Shown: positions 10,223-47,191 of the stretch, one piece after another
How positions within the stretch are numbered: the first letter of the stretch is position 1
Layout of the letters: each line of letters starts with the position of its first letter
Origin: a bacterium CG_4_9_14_3_um_filter_65_15
GTDB lineage: Bacteria > Krumholzibacteriota > Krumholzibacteriia > LZORAL124-64-63
Assembly: GCA_002790835.1 (NCBI GenBank)
Contig: PFVX01000079.1
Location: 3,130-67,129, forward strand
DNA length: 64,000 nt
Reading direction: 5' to 3'
The notes under the pieces: model-generated
The model's database searches: none
What the model was told of the DNA's origin: nothing
The model's input: the letters and a program-made list of their open reading frames with translations, nothing else
Made by a program: the position numbers and the translations under genes

Positions 10223-10318
10223 CTGGAAGTAGGCCTCCGTCGGCCCTTTGCGAATAATCCGCAGCCGCGCAGCGGCGAGGACATTTCGCAAAGGGCCGAC
10301 GGAGGCCTACTTCCAGTG
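10223..10318. repeat. Perfect 33-bp inverted repeat (two arms separated by a 30-nt loop), predicted to form a long hairpin
   Basis: ACTGGAAGTAGGCCTCCGTCGGCCCTTTGCGAA ... TTCGCAAAGGGCCGACGGAGGCCTACTTCCAGT. The right arm overlaps the last codons and stop of gatD. Coordinates are +/-1. Confidence 0.9.
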
Positions 10319-11698
10319 GGAGGAGATGAACTCGTCCACCTCCGGAATCCCCCCCTGGAACACCAGGTACCCGTTATGGGGCTCCCGCTCGGTGGTCTCG
10401 CCGTTGACGGGGGAGAGCATGATGCGCTGGACCTCGTCATGGTCCCGGCTCTGGCCCAGGGCCCAGCCCAGCTTCACGTAGGCCACCTCCGGCAGCATGT
10501 TCGCCGCCGGGACCACGCCCAGTTCCATGATCTCCCGCCCGGTCTCGTACACGTACATCTGCACGTAGCCCCACAGGGTCTGGACCGTCATGTAGACGTG
10601 CACGCCGGCGTCGCGGGCGCGTTGCAGGGCCGGGTACAGGGGCTTGTTCACGTGGCCGAGGCCGGTGCCGGCGATGATGATGCCCTTGTATCCGTTGTCG
10701 ATCAGGGAGTCGATGATGTCGGGCTTCATGTTGGGGTAGTAGTAGACCAGGGACACCCGGTCGTCGAAGACGTCGATCAGGGTGACCTGGCCGTCGTCGC
10801 GCCGCCGGTTGTAGTCGGTGCGGAACGGCGTGACCCCGCTTCCGTCGATCTTGCCCAGGGGGATGTCGCTGAGGGTGCGGAAGGTCGAGCGATAGCTGGA
10901 GTGCATCTTGCGCACGCGGGTGCCCCGGTGCAGCAGGCCGTACTCGTCGCTGGTGGGCCCGAACATGCAGACCATGACCTCGGCGATGTCGCTGGTGGCG
11001 GCGGTGCGGGTGGCGTTGATGAGGTTGATGGCCGCGTCCGAACTGGGGCGGTCGCTGCTGCGCTGGCTGCCCACCATGACGATGGGCACCGAAGGATCCT
11101 GCACCATGAAGCTGAGCGCGGCTGCGGTGTGGTGCATGGTGTCGGTGCCGTGCCCGACCACGATGCCGGTCACGCCGCCGGCAATCTCCCGGGCGATGGC
11201 GCGTGCGGTGCCGATCCACTGCTCCGGACCCATGTTCTCGCTGAACACGCCGTACAGCTTCTCGGTCTCCATGTTGCAGATGTCCGCCAGCTCCGGCACC
11301 GAACCGTACAGCTCGCCGGGGCTGAAGGCGGGAATCACCGCACCGGTGCGGTAGTCGAGGCGGCTGGCGATGGTGCCGCCGGTGCCCAGCAGCTTGACCC
11401 GCGGCTTGCCGGGGTCCACAGGGAATGCCTTCTCGGGGATCTGGTAATTGGCGACCTTGCGGCCGAGCACGCTGATGGATTCGACGGTGTCGCAGCGGAC
11501 GCCGATGTTGTATCCGGTGTCCAGCTTCAACACGATGTGCAGTGCGTCGGCGGTTTCGCTGCGCGGCAGGATGAGCCCGGAAAAATCGCCGCGGTTCGTG
11601 TGCAGTGTGACCTGGCTCCAAACCGGGGCCTCTTCCCGCTGCAACAGATCCAGGGTGGGGATGCGGTAGCCTTTGAAGTCTGCGGCGGTTTGGCTCAC
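10307..11698 (-). CDS. gatD: Glu-tRNA(Gln) amidotransferase subunit D (archaeal type; N-terminal domain plus a type-I L-asparaginase domain)
   Basis: 463 aa with a GTG start overlapping the gatE stop. The asparaginase motifs VKLLGTGGTIAS and GIVVGHGTDTM are present. An N-terminal domain of about 100 aa precedes the asparaginase fold, as in GatD. It is adjacent to gatE. Confidence 0.8.
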   Translation of the reverse strand: MSQTAADFKGYRIPTLDLLQREEAPVWSQVTLHTNRGDFSGLILPRSETADALHIVLKLDTGYNIGVRCDTVESISVLGRKVANYQIPEKAFPVDPGKPRVKLLGTGGTIASRLDYRTGAVIPAFSPGELYGSVPELADICNMETEKLYGVFSENMGPEQWIGTARAIAREIAGGVTGIVVGHGTDTMHHTAAALSFMVQDPSVPIVMVGSQRSSDRPSSDAAINLINATRTAATSDIAEVMVCMFGPTSDEYGLLHRGTRVRKMHSSYRSTFRTLSDIPLGKIDGSGVTPFRTDYNRRRDDGQVTLIDVFDDRVSLVYYYPNMKPDIIDSLIDNGYKGIIIAGTGLGHVNKPLYPALQRARDAGVHVYMTVQTLWGYVQMYVYETGREIMELGVVPAANMLPEVAYVKLGWALGQSRDHDEVQRIMLSPVNGETTEREPHNGYLVFQGGIPEVDEFISSHWK

Positions 11699-13632
11699 GA
11701 CGTGCGCTCCCGGTTGCGGCCCTTGATCCAGCTGCGGACGGTGCGTCCGGGCACCCGCCCCAGCACACCCGGCATCACCCGGCCCATCAGGACCAGGTCA
11801 CGCTGCAGGGGGCTCTCAGGCAGTTCACCCGCGGGAATCGCCTGCAGAAGGTCTTCGACCGCGGCGCGGGCCTTTTCCCGGGGCCACGGCTCCAGCGGCT
11901 CGGATTCGGCGCTCCAGACACCCTCGGGAATCAGGTCTCCCGAGACCAGTTTGCGCACCGTATCGGCCCACCAGGGGCCGGCGGCGGCCGTCTGCAGGGG
12001 CCGCGGGCAGGATCGATCCAGCAGCAGGGAGGCGAGCTGGCTGGCGGTAAGGGCGGGGGTGTCGGACTCCTGCAGGATGGGCAGCAGGGCGGCGAAAAGA
12101 TCCCAGGCCCGGTGGCGACCGAGTCGGGCGGCCAGGTCGGGCCCCACGCCGGCCGTGCGGGCGATGTCTTCCCGCTTCCAGGGTGTCAGGGGAAGGCTGT
12201 CGTGGATATGTTCCAGCCGCTCGTCGCTCAGGCCGATGGGCGGCAGGTCGGTGTCCGGATACATGCGGTCGGCTCCCGGCAGCACCCGTTCGAAACCGTT
12301 GGTGCCGTCGTCCAGTGCCTGGCGGGTTTCCTCAGGCACGCCGACGAAGGCCTCACGGGCGCGAATGAGCACTTCGCTGACCGCGGTGGCGGCGTCCCGC
12401 TCGGAGCCCCAGACGAGGATGATGGGCACTTCGGGGCCGACGCGGCAGGTCTTGGCCACCCGCTCCCATTCACCGCTGCTGAGGGTGGGGACGTCCTGGG
12501 TGGACATCACCAGGTTGGGCAAGGTGTCCAGGCAGGCGATCACCCGGATGCGGTCGCTGAATTCCTTGAGAAAGCCCGTGCGGGGCTGGGTCTGCACCTG
12601 CAGCAATCCCTGGAAACCGGGCAGGGGCACGGCCATCACCGTGGCGCCCTTCTCCACGGCCTTGCCGATGAAGCGGCAGGCGGTGCCGCGCACGGCCGAG
12701 GTGACGTCGTTTCCGCCCTGGGGCAGGTATCCGGGTTTTGCGCCCCGATGTTCCAGTTCCCGGGCGATGGCCACGAGGGTGCGCTGACGCAGGGCCTCGT
12801 TGTGGGTCAACCGGGGGATGGCGCGCAGGCAGGGCACGCCCTTGATCTCGATGCGCGTGCCGCCGGTGACCGAGACGTTGACGTCCTGCCGGGCGGCGCC
12901 GCTGCCGGTGCGCACCAGACCGGTGGCCCGCACCAGGTGGCGCAGGACCTGGCCCACGGCCATCGCTTCGCGGGGGGTCGTCATGTCCGGGTCCGTCACC
13001 GACTCGATGAGCGGCATGCCCAGCCGGTCGGTGCGGTAGGTGCGCACGTGGCCCGCATCGGATACCTCACGGCAGGAATCCTCTTCGATGCTCAACTGGC
13101 GGATGTGGATCGACTTTTCGCCGCAGGGAATGTCGCCGTCGGTGCCGATGATGGCGGTGCGCTGGAATCCGGTGGGAATGCTGCCGTCCAGGTATTGCTT
13201 GCGGGTGATGTGGACCTCGCTGACCACGTTGCAACCCAAAAGCATGGTGATGGCGATGCTGATGTCCAGGGCCTGGTCGTCCATCTCGAAGGGCGGGGCG
13301 TCGTCCATCTCGTAGGTGCAGACGGTGTCCTTGTTCAGATGGTAGATGATGTCCTTGCGGGTCTTGAATTCCATCAGCGCCGTGCCGTCGTACTCGCCCA
13401 TTTCCGAGAGGGTGGGGCGCATGTGCCGCAGCACCTCGGCCTGGTGCTCGCCCTGGTTGTAAACCCCGGCGGGACACCGGCAGAAGAGCTTGCGGCGGGT
13501 CAGGAGCTGCTGGTGGATTTCCAGACCGCAGCGGAAGCCCAGATCGGCGTATTCGGCGTCCGATAGCGTCCCGAACAGGGGCAACGGGCCGCCTAGCCAG
13601 GAGTCGCTGAAGGCGGAGTGATCTCGTTCCAT
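11695..13632 (-). CDS. gatE: Glu-tRNA(Gln) amidotransferase subunit E (archaeal type, GatB-like)
   Basis: 645 aa from the ATG at 13632 (GGAAG ribosome-binding site). YADLGFRCGLEIHQQLLTRRKLFCRCP is the GatE/GatB cradle-domain signature. It also has an internal insertion domain and a C-terminal YqeY-like helical tail. Confidence 0.8.
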   Translation of the reverse strand: MERDHSAFSDSWLGGPLPLFGTLSDAEYADLGFRCGLEIHQQLLTRRKLFCRCPAGVYNQGEHQAEVLRHMRPTLSEMGEYDGTALMEFKTRKDIIYHLNKDTVCTYEMDDAPPFEMDDQALDISIAITMLLGCNVVSEVHITRKQYLDGSIPTGFQRTAIIGTDGDIPCGEKSIHIRQLSIEEDSCREVSDAGHVRTYRTDRLGMPLIESVTDPDMTTPREAMAVGQVLRHLVRATGLVRTGSGAARQDVNVSVTGGTRIEIKGVPCLRAIPRLTHNEALRQRTLVAIARELEHRGAKPGYLPQGGNDVTSAVRGTACRFIGKAVEKGATVMAVPLPGFQGLLQVQTQPRTGFLKEFSDRIRVIACLDTLPNLVMSTQDVPTLSSGEWERVAKTCRVGPEVPIILVWGSERDAATAVSEVLIRAREAFVGVPEETRQALDDGTNGFERVLPGADRMYPDTDLPPIGLSDERLEHIHDSLPLTPWKREDIARTAGVGPDLAARLGRHRAWDLFAALLPILQESDTPALTASQLASLLLDRSCPRPLQTAAAGPWWADTVRKLVSGDLIPEGVWSAESEPLEPWPREKARAAVEDLLQAIPAGELPESPLQRDLVLMGRVMPGVLGRVPGRTVRSWIKGRNRERTS

Positions 13633-13831: not shown

Positions 13832-14554
13832 GTGGTGCGTAAGAAGCGCAGAGGTTGCGATGTCCCCGAGGCGACCATTCATCGCCTTCCCCTGTACCTG
13901 GAGAAACTCAAGTTGTTGCAGGCCATCGGGGTGGAAGACGTCTCCAGCCGCCAGTTGGCCGAATCCCTGGATATCAAGGCGAGCCAGTTGCGGCACGATT
14001 TTCATTATTTCGGCGGCTTCAGCCGGCCCGGCCGGCCCTATCAAGTCGAAAAATTGGTGCCGGCCCTGGAACAGATCATCGGGATCGACGAACCGGTGCC
14101 GACCATCATCGTCGGAGCCGGCCACCTGGGCCAGGCCCTGGCCAATTATCAAAATCTGGGCCTGCAGGGTTTCCCCCTCCACGGCATTTTCGACGTCAAC
14201 CCGCGTCTGATCGGGCTGGAAATCCGCGGGCAGGCCATCCGGGACCTGGCGGATATGCCGGACATCGTCAAGCGTGACCACATCCTGATGGGGATCATCA
14301 CCGTGCCGGCGGCCAACGCCCAGCAGGTCGCCGACCGCATGGTCGAGGCCGGCATCGTGGGGATCTTCAACTTTGCGCCGACGGATCTGAAAGTGCCCGA
14401 AGGGGTTGTGGTGCGGAACGAGCGCATGGCCGTGGGCATCATGGCCCTGAGCTTCAAGGTCAAGTGCATCCTGGAATCCCGGTTGTCCGAGTCACCAGCG
14501 GATGAGGTCGGCGCCCCAGGTAAAACCACTGCCGAAGGCGAGGGTGACGACTAG
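13832..14554 (+). CDS. rex: Redox-sensing transcriptional repressor Rex
   Basis: The wHTH N-terminus IHRLPLYLEKLKLL...VSSRQLAESLDIKASQLRHDF and the Rossmann motif IIVGAGHLGQALANY are present. GTG start with a GAGGTGA ribosome-binding site. The 3' end overlaps the convergent fabH remnant. Confidence 0.85.
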   Translation: MVRKKRRGCDVPEATIHRLPLYLEKLKLLQAIGVEDVSSRQLAESLDIKASQLRHDFHYFGGFSRPGRPYQVEKLVPALEQIIGIDEPVPTIIVGAGHLGQALANYQNLGLQGFPLHGIFDVNPRLIGLEIRGQAIRDLADMPDIVKRDHILMGIITVPAANAQQVADRMVEAGIVGIFNFAPTDLKVPEGVVVRNERMAVGIMALSFKVKCILESRLSESPADEVGAPGKTTAEGEGDD

Positions 14555-15332
14555 GTTTCCCGGCTGGATGCGCCCGGCGGCGACCGCCTCGCTCAATGCG
14601 ATGGGGATGGTCGCCGCCGTCGTGTTTCCGTAGCGTTCGATGTTGCTGACCACCTTCTGCGCCGGCAGGCCCATGCGCGATCCCACAGCCTCGGTGATGC
14701 GCTGATTGGCCTGATGGGGCACCCGCAGATCCACCTCGTCGATGGTGTGCCCACCCCGTTCCAGGACCTCGTTGACGGCCTCGCAAAAACGCCGGGTGGC
14801 GTGCTTGAACACCAGCTCGCCGTCCATGGTGGGATAGTGCCGCCCCTGCTCGATCAGCCCCGGGGTGACGCGCTCCCGCACCACCGCGGTGGGAACTTCC
14901 AACCAGACGTCCTTGGCGAAGCGGCCCTGGCTGTGCAGGACCGAGGCCAGGACACCTCGGTCCTCCTCGGTGGCCTGAACGACCACGGCGCCGGCGGTCT
15001 TCAGCCCCAACAGTTCCTCGATGAAAACCCCGTTGCCGGGAAAGAAACAGTCGGGGTTCAAGGCGGCATAGATCACCAGGTCGATTTCCGACTTGTCGAT
15101 CCCCGCAGCGGCGATGGCGGCCGTGGCGGCGATGGCGGCCTTGGCCCCCAATTCGGCCCCCGATTCGGTGGACCAGCCGTTCTCATCGAGGGTGACCCCA
15201 CCGGCGTTCGCGGATCCCGCTGCGCTGGGAGATCCACTCGTCCGAGGTCTCCATCCATGGGGTCATCTCTTCGTTGGCGACGACACGCTCGGGAACATAG
15301 AATCCCGTCCCGGTGATGGCCGCTCTGGTCAT
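14492..15332 (-). pseudogene. fabH: fabH (3-oxoacyl-ACP synthase III) pseudogene with a frameshift and an internal deletion
   Basis: The N-terminal frame [44 protein letters not shown] then shifts by +1 in the G-run near 15196-15199. The downstream frame continues ...ENGWSTESGAELGAKAAIAATAAIAAAGIDKSEIDLVIYA...HQANQRI...GNTTAATIP...GSGFTWGADLIRW. Compared with E. coli FabH, about 58 aa spanning the catalytic Cys112 region (CPAFDVAAACAGF...IIFGDG) are missing at about nt 14995. Confidence 0.75.
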
Positions 15333-15348: not shown

Positions 15349-16056
15349 TCAACGATGGACGGCGATGGCGCCTCGTAACTGCTTGCCGTGGGCCTGGATG
15401 AAGGCCTGGGCGGCGCCACGGTCGGGGAAGTATCCGATGCGGACCCGGTAGATCATGGCGCCATCGGCTGTGCTGCTGACCTTGACCCGGGCATCCCAAT
15501 CGAATTTCTGGAGCCGCAGGGCCTCACGGTCCGCGTTGGCCGCGTCGCCGTAGGAACCGGTCTGCACCAGATAGGGTCCGCTGGCCTCCGGTTGCACCTC
15601 GGGCAGGGGCTTGGTGGCGGGCTTCTCCCGGGCCGGCTCGGGGGCGGGCGGTGTGGTCCGGGGTGACGGCGTGGTCGCCGGGGCTGTTTCCTGCTGACCG
15701 CCGGAGGGTTTTTCCGGGGTCAGCTCCTGGGCGATGTGCTGCATCTCCACCTGACCCGAGCGGGGTTGGGCGGGGTGGTCGGCGTCGGTGTCCAGCGTGT
15801 CGGCGATGCCCAGATCCACTGCCAGGGAATCGAGGTCGTCGGCAGGGACGGTGATCACCGAGCGGTTCTCGCCGATTCCGGTGGGGCGGCCACCTCCCGG
15901 CTGTCGAAACAGCAGGAAGGCCGCCACCATGGCGACGAACAAGGCGAGCCAGATCGCGCGGGGGGTACCGCGCCGCTGATTGCGTCCGGCGGAGGGGCGG
16001 TGCCCTGTCTGAAGCAGCTGATCATCCTTGCGCGCCATGGGGTCCTTCCTGGCCAA
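15349..16056 (-). CDS. SPOR-domain protein (membrane-anchored, Pro/Thr-rich linker, C-terminal peptidoglycan-binding SPOR domain)
   Basis: One transmembrane helix ([17 protein letters not shown]) and a C-terminus [24 protein letters not shown]...[10 protein letters not shown]. An alternative start at 16038 is possible. Confidence 0.7.
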
Positions 16057-17733: not shown

Positions 17734-18783
17734 ATGCACGGGATTGTCGGCTACGGCGCATATGTGCCGCGCTTCAGGATCAAGGCTGAGCAGATCGCCA
17801 ACCAGTGGGGCGCCGATGCGGACGCCTTCAAGAAGGGGCTGCTGCTGGAGGAGAAAACAGTCCCGGGGCCGGACGAGGACACCATCACCATCAGCGTGGC
17901 GGCGGCCCGGGATGCGGTGACCCGCGCGGGAATCGATCCCCAACTCATCGGAGCCTGCTACATCGGGTCCGAAAGCCATCCCTACGCGGTCAAGCCCTCG
18001 GGTACGGTGCTGATCGACGCCCTGGGGATCGGCCCCGATTGCCATGTGGCCGATTTCGAGTTCGCCTGCAAGGCGGGCACCGAGGCCATGTACGTGGCCT
18101 ACTCCCACGTCAAATCCGGCGAGATGCCCTACGCCCTGGGCATCGGGGCGGACACCAGCCAGGGCGCGCCCGGTGACGCCCTGGAGTACACCGCGTCGGC
18201 CGGTGGCTCGGCCTTCGTCATGGGCAGCGAGGGTGTGGTCGCCGAGATCCTCCACACCTACTCCTTCACTTCCGACACGCCGGATTTCTGGCGCCGAGAG
18301 GGGGAGTTCTATCCTCGGCACGCCGGACGTTTCACCGGGGAGCCCGCCTACTTCCATCACGTGCTCAGCTCGTGCCAAGGGATCCTCGACCGCAGCGGCA
18401 TGAAACCCGAGGACTTCCGCTACGCCGTTTTCCACATGCCCAACGGCAAGTTTCCCCTGCGGGCGGGCAAGACCATGGGCTTCACCAAGGAACAGCTCGA
18501 ACAAGGCTGGGTGGTGAACCTCATGGGCAACACCTACAGCGGTTCGTCGCCTACGGGCCTGGCGGCCTGCCTGGACGAGGCCAAGCCGGGCGATAACATC
18601 CTGATCACTTCCTTCGGCAGCGGCGCCGGTTCGGATTCCTTCATCCTGCGGGCGACCGATCGTCTGCCCGAGGTGCAGGGCCTGGCGCCCAAGGTGCGCG
18701 ACCAGCTGGCCGACCGCCGCATCCATCTGGATTACGGCAAGTACGTGGCATACCGCGGCAAGATCCGCATGAACGAGGTCTAG
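17734..18783 (+). CDS. Hydroxymethylglutaryl-CoA synthase (archaeal/UPF0219 type)
   Basis: 349 aa. [16 protein letters not shown]...[13 protein letters not shown] (catalytic Cys)...[10 protein letters not shown]...[11 protein letters not shown]. Confidence 0.85.
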
Positions 18784-18797
18784 AAAGGGGGCGGAAC

Positions 18798-19955
18798 ATG
18801 AGAGACGTAGCTGTCATCGGCACCGGCCTGACGAACTTCGGCGAACTCTGGGACATCCCCCTGCGCGACCTGTTCGCCATGGCGGCGGCCGACTGTCTGG
18901 AAGACGCGGGGGTGGAGCGCAGCCAGATCCAATCCGCGTACATCGGCTGCATGGCCAGCGGGATGTTCGTGGCCCAGGAACACCTGGCCTCCATCCTGAC
19001 CGATTACGCGGGCCTGGGGGGCATCGCCGCAACCCGGGTGGAATCGGCCTGCGCCTCCGGTGGTGCGGCTTTCCGCGCGGCCTACCTGGAGGTGGCCAGC
19101 GGGGCGAGCGATTTCGTGCTGGCAGGCGGGGTGGAGAAGATGAACGACGGCGCCGACGCCACCGTGTGTCTGGCCGCCGCCGCGGACCAGGAGTACGAGG
19201 TCTTCCACGGGGTGACCTTCCCCGGCCTGTACGCCATGATCGCCCGGGCGCACATGGCGAAATACGGCACCACGCCCGAACAGATGGCCGCCGTGGCGGT
19301 CAAGAACCACGCCAACGGGGCCCTCAACCCCAAGGCCCAGTTTCCGCGGGAGATCACCCTGCAAACGGTGCTGGGTGCGGTCCGGGTGGCAGAGCCGCTG
19401 GGATTGTTCGACTGCTCGCCCGTGACCGACGGTGGAGCCTGCGTGCTCCTGGCGCCGGTGGAGGTGGCCCGGAAGCTGGGCAAACCCATCGTGAAGATCA
19501 TCGGATCGGGGCATGCCACCGATGCCATCGCCCTGCACGATCGGGCCGATTATTCCACCATACCGGTGGTCGGTCTGGCGGCCCAGCGGGCCTTCGCCCA
19601 GGCGGGACTCGGAATCAAGGACATCGATTTCGCCGAGGTCCACGACTGCTTCACCATCGCCGAGATCGTTTGCAGCGAGGAGCTGGGCGCCTTCGAACGC
19701 GGGCAGGGCGGCCCGGCCGCCGCCGCGGGCGAGACGGCCCGGGACGGTTCGTTCCCCATCAACACGTCGGGCGGTCTGAAGAGCAAGGGCCATCCGGTGG
19801 GGGCCACGGGAATCGCGCAGATCTGCGAGATCCACAGCCAGCTCACGGGCCGGGCCGGAGGGCGCCAGCTGAAGAACCCGCGCCGTGGCCTGGCGCAGAA
19901 CATGGGCGGTTCCGGCGGCAGCTGCACCGTGCACATCCTGGAGGTGGAGTCATGA
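18798..19955 (+). CDS. Thiolase (acetyl-CoA C-acetyltransferase, SCP-x/archaeal type)
   Basis: 385 aa. [12 protein letters not shown] (active Cys) and the C-terminal [17 protein letters not shown]...[13 protein letters not shown]. Confidence 0.85.
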
Positions 19956-20347
19956 TCACCCCGCGCTATCATCGGGAAATCCCCCAGCGTTACCGGCTCG
20001 AGGCCGGCAAGTGCACGGCCTGCGGCGAGATCCATTTTCCTCCGCGCGCGGTGTGCCGCAAGTGCGCAGGCCGCGAAATGGAAACCATCGCCCTACCGCG
20101 GCGGGGCAAGGTCCTGACCCACACCACCGTGTGGATTCCGCCCGCACAGTTCGAAGAACAGAAGCCATACGTGAACGCAGTGGTTGAATTGGAAAACGGT
20201 GTCAAGTTGACCTGCATGGTTTGCGAGGCTCCGCCGGACGAGGTCACCATCGGCACCGAGGTCGAACTGGTCTTTCGCCGTCTGCAACACGGACCGGCCT
20301 GGGAAGTCATTCAGTACGGGTACAAGGCCCGGGTCATAAAGGCGTAA
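19952..20347 (+). CDS. DUF35 (Zn-ribbon plus OB-fold) acyl-CoA-associated scaffold protein
   Basis: 131 aa. C4 zinc ribbon [20 protein letters not shown] followed by an OB fold. The ATG overlaps the thiolase stop (ATGA). Confidence 0.8.
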
Positions 20348-21056: not shown

Positions 21057-21225
21057 CTCATTGAAATTGTTATAAATAAACGATTTTGAATACGGGTTTA
21101 TCACTTATTGAAAAATAAATTCAATTTCATCTTTAATGTTACCCCATTAATCAGGTATGCTTTCTTACGCAATCGTGTCGGTGGGGAATTGGCGGTGGGG
21201 CTTCTCAACTTCCGGAGAGATTTCG
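21057..21225 (+). promoter_or_regulatory. AT-rich regulatory island (about 25% GC over about 110 nt) upstream of the desaturase-led lipid cluster
   Basis: ttgaaattgttataaataaacgattttgaatacgggtttatcacttattgaaaaataaattcaatttcatctttaatg. The GC content contrasts sharply with the flanking DNA (about 68% GC). It contains repeated ATTGAAA / AAATAAA words. A GGAGAG ribosome-binding site precedes the ATG at 21226. Confidence 0.5.
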
Positions 21226-22167
21226 ATGCGGAATGAGGCGGCCTATTTGGCGAATCCTGAGGGGTCTCGGCTCATCCGGGCGATTACCCATCTGGTGGTG
21301 TGGTTGCCCGCTGCGGGCGCCCTTGCCGGCTTGGGATTAGCCCTGACGCGGGGTGTCAGCGGCTACGCGTGGGTTTCCCTGTTGGTGATGTATGTGCTGA
21401 CGGTCACCGGTGTCGAACTGGGGCTGCACCGCTACGTTTCCCACCACGCCTTTCGGGCGCATCCGGTGGTGGAATTCTTCCTGGTGACATTCGGCTCCAT
21501 GGCCGCCCAGGGGGGACCGCTCTACTGGGCGTCGACCCATCGCCGCCATCACGCCTTTTCCGATCGCCCGGGCGACCCGCATTCCCCGCACCTCAGCGGT
21601 GGGGGGCCGCGCGGTTGCCTGACGGGAATGCTGCACGCGCACATGGGATGGTTGTTCCAGCCGGTGCATTCGGATTGGCTGCGCTACGTTCCCGACCTGA
21701 TCAAGGATTCGCGGTTGTTCACCCTGCACAGGTTGTATTTTCTCTGGATCGCGCTGGGCGTGTTGCTTCCGGCGGCCGTGGGTTTGATCTGGACACAAAG
21801 CTTGTATGGCGCGCTGGAAGGCCTCTTGTGGGGCGGATTGGGGAGGATCTTCCTGGTGCATCATGCCGTGTGGGGAGTCAATTCCCTGTGCCACGTGTTC
21901 GGCAGCCGACCCTTCGCCACCCGGGAACAAAGCCGCAACCTGGCCTGGATGGCCCTGCCTTCCCTGGGCGGAGCCTGGCACAACAACCACCACGCCTTTC
22001 CCCGCACGGCCGACAACCGGCTGCGCTGGTGGCAGTTCGATTTCTGCGGCATGGTCGCGCGGATCCTGGAGCGCACGGGACTGATCCGGGACGTCCACTA
22101 TGCCGATCCCGAATCCTTCGTTGCCGTCCCCTCGTCTCAAAAACCACCTGTGGCTATGGAGGGATGA
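21226..22167 (+). CDS. Membrane fatty-acid desaturase (stearoyl-CoA/acyl-lipid delta-9-type family), paralog 1
   Basis: Three histidine boxes HRYVSHH, HRRHH and HNNHH, with 4 transmembrane helices. The ORF track starts earlier (21157), but 21226 has the ribosome-binding site. Confidence 0.8.
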   Translation: MRNEAAYLANPEGSRLIRAITHLVVWLPAAGALAGLGLALTRGVSGYAWVSLLVMYVLTVTGVELGLHRYVSHHAFRAHPVVEFFLVTFGSMAAQGGPLYWASTHRRHHAFSDRPGDPHSPHLSGGGPRGCLTGMLHAHMGWLFQPVHSDWLRYVPDLIKDSRLFTLHRLYFLWIALGVLLPAAVGLIWTQSLYGALEGLLWGGLGRIFLVHHAVWGVNSLCHVFGSRPFATREQSRNLAWMALPSLGGAWHNNHHAFPRTADNRLRWWQFDFCGMVARILERTGLIRDVHYADPESFVAVPSSQKPPVAMEG

Positions 22168-22168
22168 C

Positions 22169-23164
22169 ATGACCAACCCCGACCTCGCCGTCCCCTTGGA
22201 CGACACCCCTTACACCGTTGCCGGCTCCGCCGAACGCCGCCGGTTGCGCCTCATTGCCGGCGCCGTCGTGGTGGTGCCGCTGCTCGGCACGCTCCTGGCG
22301 GTGTGGCTCGCGGTAACAGGGGGCCTCGGCGCCCTGGAGATCTGGTCCTTCGCCATCGGTTATGCGCTGACCCTGATGGGCATCACCGTGGGGTTCCACC
22401 GGCACTTCGCCCATCGTTCCTTCCTCGCCGGACCGGCGATGCGGGTGGTGCTGGCAACCCTGGGTTCCATGGCCGGGCAAGGCCCACTCATCTGGTGGGT
22501 GGCCACCCACCGGCGGCATCACCGCTTGAGCGATCGCGACGGCGATCCCCATTCCCCGCAACTCGCTTCCGGGCGGGGTCCGCTGCGGGCTCTCAAGGGA
22601 TTCTGGCAGGGGCACATCGCCTGGATGTTCTCCGACCGCATCAGCAACTGGAGCCTGTTTGCCCGCGACATGCTGGGGGACCGGCTGGTGGTGCGGATGC
22701 ATCAACTCTACTTCCCGATCTTCCTGCTGGGGATCATCCTGCCGGCGGCGATCGGCGGCCTCGTGACCGGTACCTGGAACGGGGTCCTGATGGGTTTCCT
22801 GTGGGGCGGACTGGTCAGGATCTTCGCCGTCGACCACGTGCTGTGGTGCGTGGGTTCGATCTGCCACATGATCGGTTTGCGCCCCTTCCGGGCGCGCACG
22901 CGCGATCACAGCACCAACAACCTGGCGGTGGCCTTTTTCGGTTTCGGCGAAGGCCTGCAGAACAACCATCACGCCTTTCCTCGCGACGCCTACCACGGTT
23001 TTCGCTGGTACGAGCCCGACCTGGGCGCCGGGACCATCCGGCTGCTGAGCCGGGTGGGACTGGTCTGGGACGTGGTGGCGACTCCGTCCCACGCCTGGAA
23101 ACTGGCCGAGGACCGCAACCGGGAAAATCCCGACCGGGCGGACCGCAGGCAGGGCGCGGCTTGA
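22169..23164 (+). CDS. Membrane fatty-acid desaturase, paralog 2 (tandem duplicate)
   Basis: HRHFAH, HRRHH and HNNHH boxes. The ATG lies 1 nt after the stop of paralog 1. The two proteins are clearly homologous but diverged. Confidence 0.8.
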   Translation: MTNPDLAVPLDDTPYTVAGSAERRRLRLIAGAVVVVPLLGTLLAVWLAVTGGLGALEIWSFAIGYALTLMGITVGFHRHFAHRSFLAGPAMRVVLATLGSMAGQGPLIWWVATHRRHHRLSDRDGDPHSPQLASGRGPLRALKGFWQGHIAWMFSDRISNWSLFARDMLGDRLVVRMHQLYFPIFLLGIILPAAIGGLVTGTWNGVLMGFLWGGLVRIFAVDHVLWCVGSICHMIGLRPFRARTRDHSTNNLAVAFFGFGEGLQNNHHAFPRDAYHGFRWYEPDLGAGTIRLLSRVGLVWDVVATPSHAWKLAEDRNRENPDRADRRQGAA

Positions 23165-23199
23165 GCGACACCTCCCAAGGACCGAATGGAGAATGACTG

Positions 23200-23538
23200 A
23201 TGTGGAAGAAAATGTTGACCCTGGTGGGCCTGAAGCCCCGGACATCGGACGTGGTCTTTGCGCGTCCCCCGGCCAATGAGCAGGAGGTCCGGGCGGGCCT
23301 GACGGCCGCGGTGGCCAAACGGGCCGGGCTGGATGCGGGCGGACTGGATCCCGAGCGCACCTTCGCCCAGCTGGGCTTCGATTCCCTGCAGGCCATGAAA
23401 TTCACCGGAAACCTTGAGAAGGATCTGGGTCTCGAGCTCGACCCCACCCTGATGTGGGATCATCCCACGGTCGCCAAGTTGACCGCCTACCTGACCGAGC
23501 GTCTGGACTTTGCCGCCGGGCGGAGGTCCATCGCGTGA
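23200..23538 (+). CDS. Acyl carrier protein-like (phosphopantetheine attachment DSL motif)
   Basis: LGFDSLQAMKF with flanking helices. The stop overlaps the fatty acyl-AMP ligase GTG start (GTGA). An alternative start at 23212 is possible. Confidence 0.65.
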   Translation: MWKKMLTLVGLKPRTSDVVFARPPANEQEVRAGLTAAVAKRAGLDAGGLDPERTFAQLGFDSLQAMKFTGNLEKDLGLELDPTLMWDHPTVAKLTAYLTERLDFAAGRRSIA

Positions 23539-25307
23539 AGGAACCTGCCGCCGTGTCCGGTCTTCAGGTCGGTGCCTCCGACCTGGGAGAGGTCCTGAGG
23601 CTGAGGTCGGAGGCCCACGGCGATCGATTGGCCTGCGCTTTCCTGCGCGACGGGGTGGACATCGCCGATTCCTGGACCTACGGCGAGTTGGACGCCCGGG
23701 CGCGCGCCATTGCCGCCCGGTTGCAGGGCCAGTTTGCTCCCGGGGACCGGCTCGTGCTGCTGTATCCGCCGGGGTTGGACTTCGTGGCGGCATTTTTCGG
23801 GTGTCTCTATGCCGGGATGATTGCGGTGCCGGCCTATCCTCCCCGTCGGGGCAAGGAGGACGTGCGAATCGTGGCCCTGGCGCATGATTGCCGTCCGGCG
23901 GGATTCCTGTCCGTGGCCGCGGGAGTGGAGGATCTCGAGGTTCTGCAGACGGCCCTGGGCGCGGGCGAGGGCGGGGTGGTGGCCACCGACGTCATCGGCG
24001 CGGACCATGCCGGAGATTTCAACCTTCGGGCCATCGACCCCGGCGCGGTGGCTTTTCTCCAGTACACGTCCGGCAGCACCGCCGCCCCCAAGGGGGTCAT
24101 GGTCACCCATGCCAACATGATGGCCAACGAATTCGCCATCCAGGCGGTGATGGAGCACGACGAGTCCCTGGTCGCCCTGGGTTGGCTGCCGGTCTTTCAC
24201 GACATGGGGCTGCTGGGCAACCTGCTGCAGCCCCTGTTTGTCGGCGGCAGCAGCATCCTGATTCCACCGTTGACCTTCCTCAAGCGTCCGCTCTGCTGGT
24301 TGGAAGCGGTGTCGAAATACGGGGCGACCTCCAGCGGGGGTCCCAACTTCGCCTTCGATCTCTGCGCCCGCCTGGCCGAGGCCCAGGGAGTGCCCAAGGG
24401 CTTGGATCTTTCCAGCTGGACGGTGGCCTACGTGGGAGCCGAACCCGTCCGCCCCGACACCCTGCGCCGCTTCGCTGCGGCCTTCAAGGGGGCCGGCTTC
24501 CGGTCGGAGGCCTACTTTCCCTGCTACGGCATGGCCGAAAGCACCCTGATCGCCACCGGCGGACCCAAGGCCCGCCCACCGGTACTTCCCCGCATCAGCA
24601 CCCGGGCCCTGCTCGAGGGGCGGGGTGAGACGCGACGGCTGCCGGGGCCGGGTTCGCGCCGGATCACCGGCTGCGGACACGCCGTTCCGCAGCACACCGT
24701 TCTGGTGGTCGACCCGGAAACCCGCGAGCCCAGCGCCGACGGGTCGGTGGGAGAAATCTGGATATCCGGCCCCAGTGTCGCGATCGGCTACTACCGCAAC
24801 CCGGAGGCCACCGAGGAGATCTTTGCCGTGCGGACAACCGACGGCCGGGGGCCTTTCCTGCGCACCGGCGACCTGGGCTTTGCCCGGGACGGGGAGTTTT
24901 TCATCACCGGTCGCTTGAAGGATATGCTGGTCATCCGGGGGCAGAACCACTACCCCAGCGACATCGAGTTGACCGTCGAGGGGGCGCACCCGGGTCTGCA
25001 GCCCAATGCGAGCGCCGCGTTTTCCACCGAGGTCGACGGCGCAGAAAGGCTCGTGGTCGCGGTGGAGATCTCCCGGATGCTGTATCAGCAGCTGGCCCGC
25101 GGCGGCGACGGCTCCGGGGAATTGCCCCTCGATGAGTTGGTCGCGGCCGTCCGCGAAAAAGTCATGGAGATCCACGAAATTCCCGTCCATCAGCTGGCGA
25201 TCCTCAAGCCGGGCGGTGTGCCCCGCACATCCAGCGGCAAGATCAGGCGCGCCGAGTGCCGGCGCCTGCACGGCGAACGAAAGCTGACCGCCCTTGCTGT
25301 CGCCTGA
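23535..25307 (+). CDS. Fatty acyl-AMP ligase (FAAL, FadD32-like adenylating enzyme)
   Basis: FLQYTSGSTAAPKGVMVTHANMMAN (FAAL-type A3 motif), YGMAESTL, the ISGPSVAIGYY...GDLGF...GRLKDMLVIRGQNHYP motifs and the C-terminal SSGKIRR. Confidence 0.8.
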   Translation: MKEPAAVSGLQVGASDLGEVLRLRSEAHGDRLACAFLRDGVDIADSWTYGELDARARAIAARLQGQFAPGDRLVLLYPPGLDFVAAFFGCLYAGMIAVPAYPPRRGKEDVRIVALAHDCRPAGFLSVAAGVEDLEVLQTALGAGEGGVVATDVIGADHAGDFNLRAIDPGAVAFLQYTSGSTAAPKGVMVTHANMMANEFAIQAVMEHDESLVALGWLPVFHDMGLLGNLLQPLFVGGSSILIPPLTFLKRPLCWLEAVSKYGATSSGGPNFAFDLCARLAEAQGVPKGLDLSSWTVAYVGAEPVRPDTLRRFAAAFKGAGFRSEAYFPCYGMAESTLIATGGPKARPPVLPRISTRALLEGRGETRRLPGPGSRRITGCGHAVPQHTVLVVDPETREPSADGSVGEIWISGPSVAIGYYRNPEATEEIFAVRTTDGRGPFLRTGDLGFARDGEFFITGRLKDMLVIRGQNHYPSDIELTVEGAHPGLQPNASAAFSTEVDGAERLVVAVEISRMLYQQLARGGDGSGELPLDELVAAVREKVMEIHEIPVHQLAILKPGGVPRTSSGKIRRAECRRLHGERKLTALAVA

Positions 25308-26436
25308 AGCAGCCCCTGTTCCTCCCGCAACGGGCAGCTACGCCGTGCGGCGCTTTCGGCCCGCCGACCAGCCCGCCCTGATCGCCTTGCTGGGTGACGT
25401 GTGGGGCGAAGATTTCGCCCGCCTCATGGAGCGGATCTGGAGCTGGAAGTACGACCGCAACCCCCACAATCCTCCGGGCGGGCACAACTCCATGGTCTTG
25501 ACCTGGGCGGAAGAGCCGGTGGGCTTTCTGGGCATGATGTCGGCCAACCTGAAGGTGGCCGACCAGGTCGTGCCCCTGGCCTGGGGATCGGAACTGGCCG
25601 TGCATCCCCGGCATCGGGGCGAAGGCTACCGGGTTATCGTGAACATCGGCACCGACGCGGAAAAGCTCATCGCGGGAACGGCCCGCACGCGGGATCTGGC
25701 CGGACTGCCCCTGGGCTTCGGCGCCTTCGATATCACCCGCATGATCAGCCACAAGCTGATCCTGCGGCCACGGCGATTCCTGGCAGCCAAGGCCGGAGGG
25801 GGGTGGGCGGCGGCGCTGGGAGCTCCGCTGGTGGGTTGGGCGGTCGCCTTGGCGCAGAAGCTCGGGCCCGGACGCCGGACTCCGGCCGTGGAATTGGAGG
25901 AAGTCGAGGACTTCGGACCGGAGTTCGATATCCTGTGGGAGAATGTGGCGCCGGGTTACCCGCTGATCCCGGTGCGGGACCGGGCCTTCCTGCAGTGGCG
26001 TTTCCGGGAGTGCCCGATTCGCGACCACACCGTGCTGGCGGTCCGCAGACTGGGAGTCCTGCACGGTTACGTCGTCTACAGGTTGGAAGGTGAACCGGGA
26101 TTGCGCCGGGCCTACATCGTGGATATGCTGGCCGGCCGGGACGATGCCGCTACCTGGGACCTGCTGCTGGGGGGTGTCGAGGCTCATTGCCGCGCAGCCG
26201 GCGCGGACATCCTGACCTTTACCATGTCCGCATCGTGGGATCTGGGCACTTCCCTGCGCCGGCGCGGATACCTTTTCCGTTCGCCACGGGCCTGGATCAC
26301 GGGCCACACCGGTTGCAAACCGGAGTATGCCCATCTGCGAGAGGGCCTGGAGCACAGCACAGGCCTGGTGATGACCCGGGCCGACACGGACCTGGACTTC
26401 AACTACTGGGGGTTGCGCGATGAAGGCCGGGAGTAA
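25294..26436 (+). CDS. GNAT-fold (FemAB / Acetyltransf_6-like, two-lobed) N-acyltransferase, putative
   Basis: 380 aa. Two GNAT-like halves (RFRPADQPALIALLGDVWGEDFA...; ...FLQWRFRE...AYIVDMLA). The TTG start is uncertain. It overlaps both neighbouring genes. Confidence 0.45.
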   Translation: MLSPEAAPVPPATGSYAVRRFRPADQPALIALLGDVWGEDFARLMERIWSWKYDRNPHNPPGGHNSMVLTWAEEPVGFLGMMSANLKVADQVVPLAWGSELAVHPRHRGEGYRVIVNIGTDAEKLIAGTARTRDLAGLPLGFGAFDITRMISHKLILRPRRFLAAKAGGGWAAALGAPLVGWAVALAQKLGPGRRTPAVELEEVEDFGPEFDILWENVAPGYPLIPVRDRAFLQWRFRECPIRDHTVLAVRRLGVLHGYVVYRLEGEPGLRRAYIVDMLAGRDDAATWDLLLGGVEAHCRAAGADILTFTMSASWDLGTSLRRRGYLFRSPRAWITGHTGCKPEYAHLREGLEHSTGLVMTRADTDLDFNYWGLRDEGRE

Positions 26437-27304
26437 CCCAACGCCTCGGCCGGTGGCCTTCGTCCACATCCCCAAGGCGGCCGGCACCACACTGCACGGG
26501 ATCCTTGCGCGCCAGTATCCGGCGGCTCACACGCTGATCCTGGACGTTCAGCGCCCCGAGTACCGCCGGAATCTGGACGGCATCACCGAGCAGCAATGGG
26601 CGTCGGCCCTCTGTCTGCGGGGCCACATGCCCTTCGGCATGCACCGCCGAACGGAACGGGAATTCGCCTACGTCACCGTGCTTCGCGATCCGGTCACCCG
26701 CATCATTTCCAAGTACCGCAACCTGCAGCGCCGGCCCGAGCGGGCGCGGGAGATGGCCTTCCCGCCCGATCGCCTGGAAACGCTGGAGGACTTCATCGCC
26801 CTGCAGGGCGAACGCAACGCCCTGAATTTCCAGACGCGAATGCTGGCGGGTTGGGTCGAACCCGACGCCCCCCTGTTTCCCTATGCGCAGCCCCTGCCGG
26901 ATGAAGCGCTGGATCTGGCCAAGGCCAACATCGAAAAGCACTTCGCCGTGGTGGGGCTGCAGGAACGCTTCGCCGAATCGGTGGCCCTGATGCAGCTTGC
27001 GCTGGGGTGGCGGCAAGTGGGGATTCCGCGGCGCAACGCCGCCCCCGCTGCGGCGGACCGGTACGATTTGGCCGTGCACGATGAGATCCGGAAACTCAAC
27101 CATCTGGACCAGGCCCTGGTGGCTTATGCGGCCAAGCGGCTGGATGAGCAGATCGCCGCCGAGGGGGAGGATTTTGAGCGCGCCTTGCAGGGGATCAAGA
27201 GCCGGAGTCGGGTCGCGGACAACCTGCAGAACTTGGTCCGCGGCTCGGGTCTGAGGCGCGTCGGTTCCCTGGTCAGGAAATGGCGCGTCAGAACTTCCGG
27301 GTGA
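26420..27304 (+). CDS. Sulfotransferase (carbohydrate/Stf-like family, PAPS-dependent)
   Basis: The 5'-PSB motif FVHIPKAAGTT and the 3'-PB motif TVLRDPVTRIISKYR are present. Confidence 0.6.
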   Translation: MKAGSNPTPRPVAFVHIPKAAGTTLHGILARQYPAAHTLILDVQRPEYRRNLDGITEQQWASALCLRGHMPFGMHRRTEREFAYVTVLRDPVTRIISKYRNLQRRPERAREMAFPPDRLETLEDFIALQGERNALNFQTRMLAGWVEPDAPLFPYAQPLPDEALDLAKANIEKHFAVVGLQERFAESVALMQLALGWRQVGIPRRNAAPAAADRYDLAVHDEIRKLNHLDQALVAYAAKRLDEQIAAEGEDFERALQGIKSRSRVADNLQNLVRGSGLRRVGSLVRKWRVRTSG

Positions 27305-34602: not shown

Positions 34603-37600
34603 TTACGGATTCAGGAGCCGCAACAGCTCCCGCACCTCGTAGCCGGCCGCTTTGGCCTTTTGCAACAGCACCGAGCGGGCGTCAAGCAGGGCCACGAAAT
34701 CGACATCCGATTCGTGGGCCAGAGCTGCGGACGTCACCACCTGCAACCAATCATCGAGCCGCTCGGCGGAGAGATAGACTGTTTGCTCGTGCGTGTTGAT
34801 TCCCAGCAATTCCGCCGCCGCCGGGTCGGTCAGGATGTCCGCCAACCAGGAAATTTTTCCCTCAGCCAGGAAACGATAACTGTCTGCATGAGCGGCCAGC
34901 AGGCGAGCAGAAGCCGTGGCCATGGCCGCGGCGTGATCGTGCCCCAGCCAATCCTTCAGGATCGCTCCCATGTCCTCGGTGACCAGGTCCCGGCCCGGTC
35001 CATCCAGGCCGATCTTTTCTGAGCCGGTTGTGCCCAACAGTTCGGCCAGGTAGATGACCTGCAGGCAACGGCTGTGGGGGAGGTTCTCCAGCAGCGCTAT
35101 CAGCTCGGTTCTGGAGCCGCGCCCCAGGCCGACGGGGATCTTCATTCGGGGCAAGGCGCGCAGGTGGGTGGCCAGGGTTACCAGGTTTTCCGGCAGATCG
35201 CGGGGAACCTTGGCGGGCTCCGGTTTCTGGTCGGTGGCTCCGGCGTATTCCAGCCACGCCAGGATCTCCGGCGTCATCCACGTGCGCACCCGGGACAGGA
35301 CCGGATCCAGCTCGCGCCGCAACAATTCCCGTCGCAGGTCCGGTGCACCGCGGCCCTGCAGGGAGTCTGCCAGGTCCGCCCAGCGGCCGGGGTCGCCGTC
35401 CAGGAGGGTCATCTGGATGAAGGCCCGGTACTGGTAACCGTGCAGGTCGGTGTGCAGGCCCTGTTCGCACAGTTCGCGTCCGCCTCGCAGGTATTGCAGG
35501 CCGTCGGCGTGGTCGGTCAGGGCGTACCAGGAAGTGCCGGAGCAATCCAGGCCGAGGGCGCCGGCCAGGGTGACGCTTTGCAGGTCGGGATGGTCGGCGC
35601 TGCCGCGGTTGATGGCGGTGGAGGTGCGGATGCGCCCTGCGGTCCCGTCGTAGGCGTTGTTGTAGATGACCAGGACCCGCTCGGTTCCCGATCCGTTGAC
35701 GAAGGCGAAGACGTTCTCGTCCACCCAGCCGCCTTCGCTTTCGAAATCGAAGAGCGCGAAGTTCTCGGACCCGCTGAACAGGTGGCGCCGGCGCAGCAGC
35801 GGAAAGATCGCGCGCTCGTGCCGGTCGACCATCTCCCGGTCGATCTTTTCGTCCCAGTAGGCCCGGCGGTATTCCATGCCGTATTTCTCGGTGAAGCCCT
35901 CGATCTGGCCGTGCCCGATCATGGGCAGACCGGGCAGGGTGGCCAGCAACACCATGCACCCGAAGTACTTGTCGCCGCGACCGAACTGCTCGACGGCCGT
36001 GCGCTCGTCGGGATTGTTCATGAAGTTGACGAAGCGCTGCAGGATGCCGGGACTGAATTCCAGCACGTTCTTGAGGGTCTGCCTGTACTTCTGGTTGTCC
36101 TCCATCTTGAGCATGTTCATGAAGGCCGAGTTGTAGACGCGGTGCATGCCGAGGGTGCGGACGAAGTAACCCTCCATGAGCCAGAACGCCTCGGCCAGCA
36201 GCAGGGTGTCGGGCGCCTCGGCGGCCACGCGGTCGACGACCTCCCGCCAGAACTCCGCCGGGAAGACCCGGTCGAACTCCTCGCGTGACATGCCGTGTTC
36301 GGCGCGAGAAGGGATGGCGCCGGCGTCGCCGGGCGCAGGGAACCACAGCCGCTGGAAGTGCTTCTTGGCCAAGGTCATGGCCGCGTCGAAACGGATGATG
36401 GGGAAGCGGCGGGCCACGTCCAGAATCACCCGGATGACCGCCTCGCGCACTTGGGGCAACAGGAAGTTGAGCTGGGCGGTGTCGTTCCAGGGCATGCTGG
36501 TTCCGTCGTTGCCGTGGTAGATGTATCGGACCCGACCGGTGTTGTCGTCGCGTCGCTCGAAGACCACCGCGGCGTCGCGCTTGTCCCAGTAGCCGTCCTC
36601 CAGTCGCACCGACACGCCGGGCGATCCGCACAGATCCTCGCAGCCGAAGCGGTAGGCGGGATAGGGCGGATGATCCAGTTGCAGGAAATACTCCGGATGT
36701 TCCACCACCCAGCGGCTGTCGATCCCCATGTGGTTGGGCACCATGTCGCTGGCCAGGCGGATGCCGCGGCGGCCGGCGCGTTCGCTCAGGTTCCGCCAGG
36801 CCTCCTCGCCGCCCAGATCGGAGGCGATGGCGTAGTCGGCCAGGGAGTAGGCGCTGGCGGCCGCGTCGGGATTGCCCAGCCATTGCTTGATGGTACGCGA
36901 GGCGGCCGAGCGTTCCCATAACCCGATGAGCCACAATCCGTTGATCCCCCAGTGGGCCAGGCGGTCCAGCTCCTCGTCCGGGATGTCGGCGAGGGTTCGC
37001 AGCGGTCGTCCGTACCACTTGGAGAGCTGATCCAACCAGACGGAGACGCTCTTGGCCATGAGCACGACATTGGCCATCCAGTCGGCGTCGCGGCTGAAGG
37101 CCTCGGGTTCGTCACGCGCCGGCCCCGGGCCGAACTCCAGCACGGGCGCGGGCCCCGGCTCGCCCCCGCGGGCGACATCGACTTCCTGCAACACGTCCAG
37201 GGCGAACTGCAGCCTCTCGCGCAACTCGTCCGGCAGCAGGTGGGCCCAGTGATCCCGGATCCAGGCGAGCTGGCCGGCCAGGGAGTCGGGGCTCGCCAGC
37301 AGCGGAGCACGCAGCAGGTGCGGCAGCGAAACGCCCTCGGTGCCGACGACCTCGAACTCGGTCAGGTACTTTTCCAGCCCGGTCACGAAGGGCAGGTACG
37401 AGACCCGGCGGCGCAGCTCCCCGTCGTGGAACAGGTGCTCGGCCTCCGCCGCGGCGGGGTTGTTGACGTTCAGGAACAACAGGAACATTTCCAGCGCGGC
37501 GAGGTCCCGCCCGTTGAGGTCGTCCAGGGCGCCGGCAAGGAACTGTTCGCCGGTCAGGTCCGCGCGCTTGACCTCCAGGGGCGGGAACAGGTCGACGAAG

Positions 37601-37956
37601 GTCGTCATGACGGCGTCGACCGCGTCGGGTCCCAGCCGCTGGGTGGCCCACTGGCGACAGCGGCTCAGGCCGCCGGGGTTCTCGATGCGGAAATAGCGCA
37701 GGGCGACCCACTTCAGCACCTGATTCAGGGTGCGCAGGGCGAGAAGCGTTTCGGCGTGGGTGGGCGGCCGGCCGGCCGTCTTGCGGCCGGCATCGTCGTT
37801 GACCGCCGCGGCCAGTTTGCGGATGGCGTACGCCGCCGCTCCGTCCTGCTCCTTTCCCGGAACCAGGGAGGCGATGCCGTACCGCAGCCAGGCCTGATCC
37901 GCCAGGGGAAAGTCGAACACGAAATACTTTGGCGCAGAACGAGTTGGGTCCGCCAT
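34603..37956 (-). CDS. Large multidomain GH13 (alpha-amylase family) glycoside hydrolase
   Basis: The GH13 conserved regions DMVPNHMG, IIRFDAAMTLAKKH (catalytic Asp), EAFW and NNPDERT are present. The start ATG at 37956 is uncertain (an alternative is at 38007). The ORF-track ORF extends to 39426 only as antisense of the neighbouring gene. Confidence 0.7.
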   Translation of the reverse strand: MADPTRSAPKYFVFDFPLADQAWLRYGIASLVPGKEQDGAAAYAIRKLAAAVNDDAGRKTAGRPPTHAETLLALRTLNQVLKWVALRYFRIENPGGLSRCRQWATQRLGPDAVDAVMTTFVDLFPPLEVKRADLTGEQFLAGALDDLNGRDLAALEMFLLFLNVNNPAAAEAEHLFHDGELRRRVSYLPFVTGLEKYLTEFEVVGTEGVSLPHLLRAPLLASPDSLAGQLAWIRDHWAHLLPDELRERLQFALDVLQEVDVARGGEPGPAPVLEFGPGPARDEPEAFSRDADWMANVVLMAKSVSVWLDQLSKWYGRPLRTLADIPDEELDRLAHWGINGLWLIGLWERSAASRTIKQWLGNPDAAASAYSLADYAIASDLGGEEAWRNLSERAGRRGIRLASDMVPNHMGIDSRWVVEHPEYFLQLDHPPYPAYRFGCEDLCGSPGVSVRLEDGYWDKRDAAVVFERRDDNTGRVRYIYHGNDGTSMPWNDTAQLNFLLPQVREAVIRVILDVARRFPIIRFDAAMTLAKKHFQRLWFPAPGDAGAIPSRAEHGMSREEFDRVFPAEFWREVVDRVAAEAPDTLLLAEAFWLMEGYFVRTLGMHRVYNSAFMNMLKMEDNQKYRQTLKNVLEFSPGILQRFVNFMNNPDERTAVEQFGRGDKYFGCMVLLATLPGLPMIGHGQIEGFTEKYGMEYRRAYWDEKIDREMVDRHERAIFPLLRRRHLFSGSENFALFDFESEGGWVDENVFAFVNGSGTERVLVIYNNAYDGTAGRIRTSTAINRGSADHPDLQSVTLAGALGLDCSGTSWYALTDHADGLQYLRGGRELCEQGLHTDLHGYQYRAFIQMTLLDGDPGRWADLADSLQGRGAPDLRRELLRRELDPVLSRVRTWMTPEILAWLEYAGATDQKPEPAKVPRDLPENLVTLATHLRALPRMKIPVGLGRGSRTELIALLENLPHSRCLQVIYLAELLGTTGSEKIGLDGPGRDLVTEDMGAILKDWLGHDHAAAMATASARLLAAHADSYRFLAEGKISWLADILTDPAAAELLGINTHEQTVYLSAERLDDWLQVVTSAALAHESDVDFVALLDARSVLLQKAKAAGYEVRELLRLLNP

Positions 37957-47173: not shown

Positions 47174-47191
47174 CCTCTTCTCCTTTGTCCG

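Follow-up and report, generated by a model that had tools for sequence, protein, structure and literature searches.

The window analyzed here is a 64,000-nucleotide (nt) stretch of contig PFVX01000079.1 (assembly GCA_002790835.1) from the Krumholzibacteriota bacterium CG_4_9_14_3_um_filter_65_15. [quoted passage not shown] The features of the locus are listed below, with open reading frames (ORFs) measured in amino acids (aa).

13832–14554, plus strand: rex, encoding a redox-sensing repressor, convergent with fabH
14492–15332, minus strand: the fabH (KAS III) remnant in full, its original start (ATG) and stop codons included, delimited by homology and alignment
14492–15151, minus strand: 219-aa ORF with a TTG start, the C-terminal part of the fabH remnant
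14987–14995, minus strand: deletion junction, with one GCCGGCGCC (Ala-Gly-Ala) left
15113–15139, minus strand: three tandem 9-nt units, GCCGCCATC GCCGCCACG GCCGCCATC
15183–15332, minus strand: ORF of the N-terminal fragment, 49 aa, closed by a premature TGA that the frameshift creates
15196–15199, minus strand: G-run with a +1 insertion, TGGGGTC against TGGGTC in intact orthologs
15349–16038, minus strand: SPOR-domain gene directly upstream of fabH, across a 16-nt gap

In place of a single uninterrupted ORF of ~320–340 codons, the remnant consists of the 49-aa and 219-aa ORFs in different frames. The first frame starts at 15332, reads MTRAAITG...SGIRERRW and then runs through GHPR into the stop at 15183, while the FabH reading resumes in the next frame at VTLDENG and continues to ADLIRW*, from 15196 down to 14492, its last residues being ...FGSGFTWGADLIRW before the stop. 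A first-pass annotation of this DNA had placed the N- and C-terminus of KAS III in different frames with a switch at 15196–15199, and this is confirmed at the TGGGGT run of the minus strand, whose G residues occupy exactly these positions. Where intact orthologs read TGG GTC, the remnant reads TGG GGT C, and a stop follows five codons after the switch (CGG UGG GGU CAC CCU CGA UGA). Removal of one G restores a 279-aa reading. The 219-aa ORF is what gene callers annotate at the remnant, and the 49-aa ORF is also predicted by gene callers in other assemblies.

The 279-aa reading aligns with Escherichia coli FabH (PDB 1EBL) at 42% identity, its N- and C-terminal parts matching end to end (residues 6–119 with residues 5–109 of the chain, and 112–279 with 160–317). 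Between these parts lies the second lesion, an in-frame deletion that the first-pass annotation had estimated at about 58 aa; this is right in E. coli numbering (residues ~103–160), and against the orthologs of the lineage itself the gap measures 60 codons exactly (180 bp) and runs from ...GLKT-AGA to AGA-VVVQAT. The junction, expected near 14995, does fall there, within the GCCGGCGCC at 14987–14995. The sister species (described below) has two AGA-coding 9-mers placed 60 codons apart, GCCGGCGCC ... GCGGGCGCG, of which the remnant keeps a single GCCGGCGCC. The deleted segment reads ...LDIRNQCSGFVYGL...VLFGDGAGA and corresponds to the part of E. coli FabH that contains the nucleophilic Cys112, so that the reported removal of the catalytic cysteine holds as well. 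The Cys-His-Asn triad is thus incomplete, the codons for His (14714–14716) and Asn (14624–14626) being present and the Cys segment being deleted. A third lesion, absent from the earlier annotation, is an extra 9-nt unit GCCGCCATC assigned to 15131–15139, which adds three residues in frame; the tandem repeat at 15113–15139 has three units in the remnant versus two in the sister species. Every lesion sits in a repeat, be it the G-run, the 9-nt tandem repeat or the 9-nt direct repeats 180 bp apart, and all three are of the type made by strand slippage at repeats, a mechanism that the sequence suggests.

Comparison with protein families gives the same picture. The Pfam scan matched the remnant to PF08541 only (ACP_syn_III_C, the C-terminal domain; 114.6 bits) and returned no match to PF08545 (ACP_syn_III, the region of the active-site Cys), whereas intact relatives carry both domains. 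The frame-corrected product stays under both NCBIfam cut-offs for FabH, with 226.5 versus 292.1 bits for TIGR00747 and 242.7 versus 249 bits for NF006829, and the 219-aa ORF reaches 170.3 and 184.2 bits, respectively. Among ~5.8 billion proteins searched, KAS III homologs number in the thousands, and the top 120 are with few exceptions 336–337 aa long. The closest, P0001 (336 aa), shares 89% aa identity with the remnant over 276 retained columns and scores above both cut-offs (TIGR00747, 343 versus 292.1; NF006829, 361 versus 249). The closest homologs keep the missing 60 residues including the ...RNQC(S/T)GF... motif with its Cys, and the test of whether the gap is a variation of the lineage thus failed to refute the deletion. 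Compared with FabH enzymes at large (TIGR00747, NF006829; E. coli structures 1EBL and 1HN9), the remnant is alike in its His and Asn, its PF08541 domain and its alignment at both ends, and differs in being split by a +1 frameshift and in lacking 60 residues that include the Cys and everything PF08545 recognizes.

The same lesions recur in public metagenome assemblies. The exact 219-aa product occurs on at least 17 contigs, and the 4-G run, the deletion junction and the extra 9-mer were all present in each of the 11 other assemblies checked. These comprise ten loci from the search with the 219-aa product plus one JGI contig (ENA ERZ17912254 and five assemblies of the ERZ272933xx series; Logan SRR5487654, SRR6241617, SRR6050921 and SRR6050960; JGI 3300009424), and their contig names point to different assemblers (SPAdes-style, MEGAHIT-style, Logan and JGI pipelines). 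Over stretches of up to 20.6 kb, the contigs match the window at 99.76–100% identity and represent one near-clonal population sampled repeatedly; in addition, window proteins have identical counterparts in the NCBI metagenome-assembled genomes (MAGs) GCA_009994375.1 and GCA_002781425.1. The constant length of the 4-G run among assemblies gives no sign of phase variation. In a scan of JGI metagenomes for intermediates carrying a single lesion, the matches listed were distant relatives.

An artefact, in which a homopolymer error in the G-run coincided with assembly collapse of the 180 bp between short repeats, might be suspected from the location of the frameshift in a homopolymer and from the 9-nt repeat flanking the deletion. 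Since all 11 assemblies, which differ in run, archive and assembler, show the three lesions in identical form, sequencing error is excluded for them, and the homopolymer test likewise failed to refute the earlier claim; the 9-nt repeat is moreover far shorter than assembler k-mers (k141 and SPAdes in the contig names). What an artefact does look like in these data is illustrated by one contig (L089, ENA ERZ27293356) with a private 1-nt deletion in gatE, at window position 13414, that splits the gene into 85-aa and 568-aa ORFs, is shared by no other assembly and is a probable assembly error. As this deletion is private, assembly-specific indels evidently occur in these data but do not replicate, and a technical origin of the fabH lesions is extremely improbable.

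An intact fabH of 336/337 aa occupies the same syntenic position, within an SSF–SPOR–fabH–Rex–GatE–GatD locus, in four relatives. These are a sister species (contigs L082/L083, 91.7% nucleotide identity to the window; the species comes from samples ERR14790929 and ERR14790934) and three more distant relatives, L094 (79.5%), L176 (77.6%; MAG GCA_024763215.1) and L177 (74.8%). More distant Krumholzibacteriia MAGs have the HAD–p167–methyltransferase–prolyl oligopeptidase neighbors in common with the window; taken together with the best hits, this synteny makes Krumholzibacteriota the most likely affiliation of the organism. At their 3' ends, rex and the fabH remnant overlap by 63 nt (14492–14554), the last 63 nt of each gene, so that rex continues to constrain the final 21 codons of the remnant. 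The overlap is also 63 nt beside the intact fabH of the sister species (L082), and 72 nt in L094, L176 and L177.

Selective constraint on the retained part was assessed by assigning changes to branches by parsimony, with L094 as the outgroup. Synonymous and non-synonymous changes in fabH number 16:18 on the window branch versus 18:9 on the sister branch, and four neighboring genes show 91:47 on the window branch (Fisher p = 0.05 against the 16:18 of fabH). At ~3.1 non-synonymous sites per synonymous site, this amounts to an omega of ~0.36 for fabH versus ~0.17 for the neighbors. At the protein level, 15 changes are specific to the window and 6 to the sister species (p = 0.08). In 118 full-length homologs, 128 positions show a conservation of at least 95%; the remnant carries a non-consensus residue at 10 of them, compared with a mean of 1.1 and a maximum of 5 per intact homolog; T90A, L142V, V264L and N275D affect positions conserved at 99–100%, and the window residue occurs in none of the 118. 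The remnant thus appears to be under moderately relaxed constraint, in the expected direction and with modest statistics. Constraint may have been lost part-way along the branch, with about ten excess replacements since, which suggests that the enzyme has been missing from the lineage for a noticeable stretch of evolutionary time and that the pseudogene is nonetheless young.

Taken as a whole, the locus is very probably a true pseudogene of a conserved housekeeping-type FabH that has become fixed in the population. The first-pass annotation had held that fabH was disabled twice, by the G-run frameshift and by the in-frame deletion, and this reading is supported, each of the two lesions disabling the gene independently. 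In the proposed course of events, three replication-slippage-type events would have followed the split from the sister species, in which fabH is still intact. An extra G in a GGG run would have shifted the frame and brought in a stop five codons later; misalignment between two 9-nt direct repeats coding for Ala-Gly-Ala would have caused the 180-bp deletion, taking with it the strand-helix element that bears the acyl-accepting cysteine (E. coli Cys112); and the 9-nt tandem repeat would have expanded from two units to three. Because of the established Cys-His-Asn mechanism of KAS III, no product of the locus should be able to form the acyl-enzyme intermediate, which would place this fabH locus outside fatty-acid initiation. 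That the remnant is still there is probably due to the short time elapsed, and also to its position, since rex extends into its 3' end and the SPOR gene directly adjoins its 5' end. The loss is ordinary gene decay and the result an ordinary kind of pseudogene: as in other bacterial pseudogenes that arose by slipped-strand or microhomology indels, all three lesions lie in repeats, and nothing about them is unusual.

Four points weigh against this interpretation. The pairwise ratio of non-synonymous to synonymous substitution rates (dN/dS) between the remnant and the sister ortholog is 0.17, within the 0.12–0.33 of neighboring genes; the relaxation on the window branch has only borderline statistical significance (p = 0.05–0.08); the frame-corrected remnant contains no further stop codons, which is weak evidence at 66% G+C; and the 11 assemblies, while excluding error, are not independent evolutionary replicates. 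The corresponding alternative is that the remnant is still useful, either as the 219-aa C-terminal half or as a +1-recoded, Cys-less protein of 279 aa that acts as a non-condensing partner or a decarboxylase, for which Cys-less ketosynthase relatives of the KSQ and CLF types provide an analogy. The retention of His and Asn and of the whole remainder of the gene, the lack of additional stops in the corrected frame and a branch omega below 1 (~0.36) would fit such a role; however, an omega below 1 is also expected if inactivation came part-way along the branch, and the overlap with rex would by itself keep the 3' 63 nt under constraint. The Cys is only one of the 60 residues that the N-terminal thiolase half has lost from its core, and residues that are invariant in the 118 homologs have been replaced, including T90A, L142V and N275D. 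Recoding would further have to operate without a recognizable slippery or stop-stimulated +1 site, the stop lying five codons past the shift. A programmed +1 frameshift of the prfB type was considered and found no support, as relatives lack the frameshift and inspection found no cognate +1 re-pairing at the stop. A continuing function of the remnant is accordingly judged highly unlikely, and gene decay is retained as the explanation.

With this fabH inactive, the organism would have to initiate acyl chains otherwise, by a second KAS III, by a FabH-independent route or with fatty acids from outside. The chances appear evenly balanced that the loss is tolerated and another condensing enzyme initiates, for example a second KAS III paralog, and bacteria often have several KAS III paralogs. 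On such paralogs see also PMC11801535. The ~10 excess non-synonymous changes, which suggest that the lineage has lived for some time without the gene, also speak for a substitute; against it stand the lack of any other KAS III in the 64-kb window or in ~6 kb of extra flank, and the strong conservation of fabH at this locus in all relatives examined, which is the behavior of a housekeeping copy.

Loss of the only KAS III, with initiation through a FabH-independent route (MadA/YiiD, a FabY-like enzyme or a FabB-like KAS I/II) or reliance on exogenous fatty acids, seems possible rather than probable. FabY is the initiator in Pseudomonas aeruginosa. Other bypasses are documented: the MadA/YiiD malonyl-ACP decarboxylase in an E. 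coli fabH deletion strain (PMC8666670), FabB-initiated synthesis in Pseudomonas putida F1 (PMC10869286) and the rescue of an Enterococcus faecalis fabH deletion strain by exogenous fatty acids (PMC13372179). A beta-oxidation cluster accompanied by a YsiA-type TetR regulator also lies in the window, as does a FAAL–ACP pair, which indicates that the organism handles fatty acids. However, no MadA, FabY or FabB/F gene was found in the window, the beta-oxidation genes are uninformative on the incorporation of fatty acids into lipids, and the block containing the FAAL–ACP pair, being found in two relatives whose fabH is intact, is not a replacement acquired together with the loss. That the decayed gene was the only KAS III, and that a free-living bacterium of the Fibrobacterota–Chlorobiota–Bacteroidota (FCB) group starts its chains without FabH, by another route or with fatty acids from the community, is accordingly put forward as a tentative and somewhat doubtful proposition.

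The loss gains interest only if a second KAS III proves to be absent from the full genome. In that case it would resemble the cases named above in E. coli, P. putida F1, P. aeruginosa and E. faecalis, in which the canonical initiator is absent naturally or by engineering; it differs from them in being, by all appearances, a natural fixed pseudogene in an uncultured FCB bacterium. A gene lost in one lineage and kept by its sister species would offer a clean natural contrast for the study of FabH-less initiation in this group. Public records annotate the 219-aa ORF as “3-oxoacyl-ACP synthase” (one cluster member bears that name), so that FabH would be attributed to these MAGs in error when their metabolism is reconstructed.

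The remaining genes of the window that bear on these questions, together with its archaeal-type genes, are the following.

10307–13632, minus strand: GatD (463 aa) and GatE (645 aa), identified by archaeal equivalog models
17734–20347, plus strand: archaeal-type 3-hydroxy-3-methylglutaryl-CoA (HMG-CoA) synthase, followed by a thiolase and a DUF35 protein (zf-ChsH2/OB)
21157–27304, plus strand: FAAL/ACP block of six genes
44157–50401, minus strand: beta-oxidation cluster with a 679-aa acyl-CoA dehydrogenase, a thiolase and a 790-aa fused 3-hydroxyacyl-CoA dehydrogenase/enoyl-CoA hydratase
52935–57085: two methylmalonyl-CoA mutase genes

The FAAL/ACP block comprises two DesA-family desaturases, a 112-aa carrier protein, a FAAL-like adenylase, a 380-aa GNAT-like protein and a sulfotransferase. 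The first-pass annotation had hinted at a link between this block and the loss of fabH, a suggestion that did not survive comparison with relatives. The block is present at the same locus in L180 (90.5% identity to the window), which stems from the same sample (ERR14790929) and shows the same divergence as the sister contig L082 with its intact fabH, and in L181, which belongs to the MAG GCA_024763215.1, where an intact fabH lies on contig L176. It is missing at the syntenic site of L094, L177 and Krumholzibacteriia loci. A lineage-specific gain accompanying the loss of fabH was considered and rejected, as the block occurs with intact fabH in both pairs (L180/L082 and L181/L176). Because of this coexistence in two relatives, the block appears to predate the loss and a connection is unsupported. 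Its G+C content is typical of the genome and it lacks flanking repeats. The 380-aa GNAT-like protein, which has 10 homologs among the 5.8 billion proteins, was considered as a MadA/YiiD-like decarboxylase and found no support, having neither a YiiD_C Pfam hit nor a relative in the PDB; the 401-aa neighbor proved likewise uninformative.

Searching the window in six frames with the family profile returned no other KAS III, apart from a weak hit at 17734–18783 (E = 8e-13) in a 349-aa gene that carries the Pfam label ACP_syn_III_C. This gene was considered as a spare FabH and rejected, since it scores 496 bits against TIGR00748 (cut-off 353) and 61 bits against the fabH model; by these scores it is an archaeal-type HMG-CoA synthase, a family that shares the thiolase-fold C-terminal domain with KAS III. 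Together with the thiolase and the DUF35 protein it forms a trio conserved at 89–97% aa identity in L094 and L177, in the arrangement known from the archaeal mevalonate-pathway entry complex. The ~6 kb of extra flank beyond the window ends contains no fab genes, another KAS III included, and neither Rfam families nor tRNAs were found in the window.

The beta-oxidation cluster lies beside a divergent gene for the YsiA-type TetR regulator. Together with the methylmalonyl-CoA mutase genes it is evidence that fatty acids are metabolized, and not of the way in which acyl chains are started.

GatDE is generally considered archaeal; literature searches on GatDE, as on fatty acids in Krumholzibacteriota, gave nothing relevant. 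In the window, GatD scores 501.6 bits against TIGR02153 (cut-off 324) and GatE 389.6 bits against TIGR00134 (cut-off 319.55), and the same organism thus carries the GatDE genes as well as the archaeal-type HMG-CoA synthase/thiolase/DUF35 trio. The GatD/GatE pair is kept in L094, L176 and L177, and the surrounding genome is otherwise bacterial, with SPOR, Rex, an extracytoplasmic function (ECF) sigma factor and a type IX secretion system (T9SS) sorting tail. Elsewhere in the window, at 34603–39846, long ORFs overlap on opposite strands and the gene boundaries are ambiguous: a 1607-aa ORF on the minus strand has a short alpha-amylase hit only, and an ORF on the plus strand matches AtuA with 481 bits (aa 373–810).

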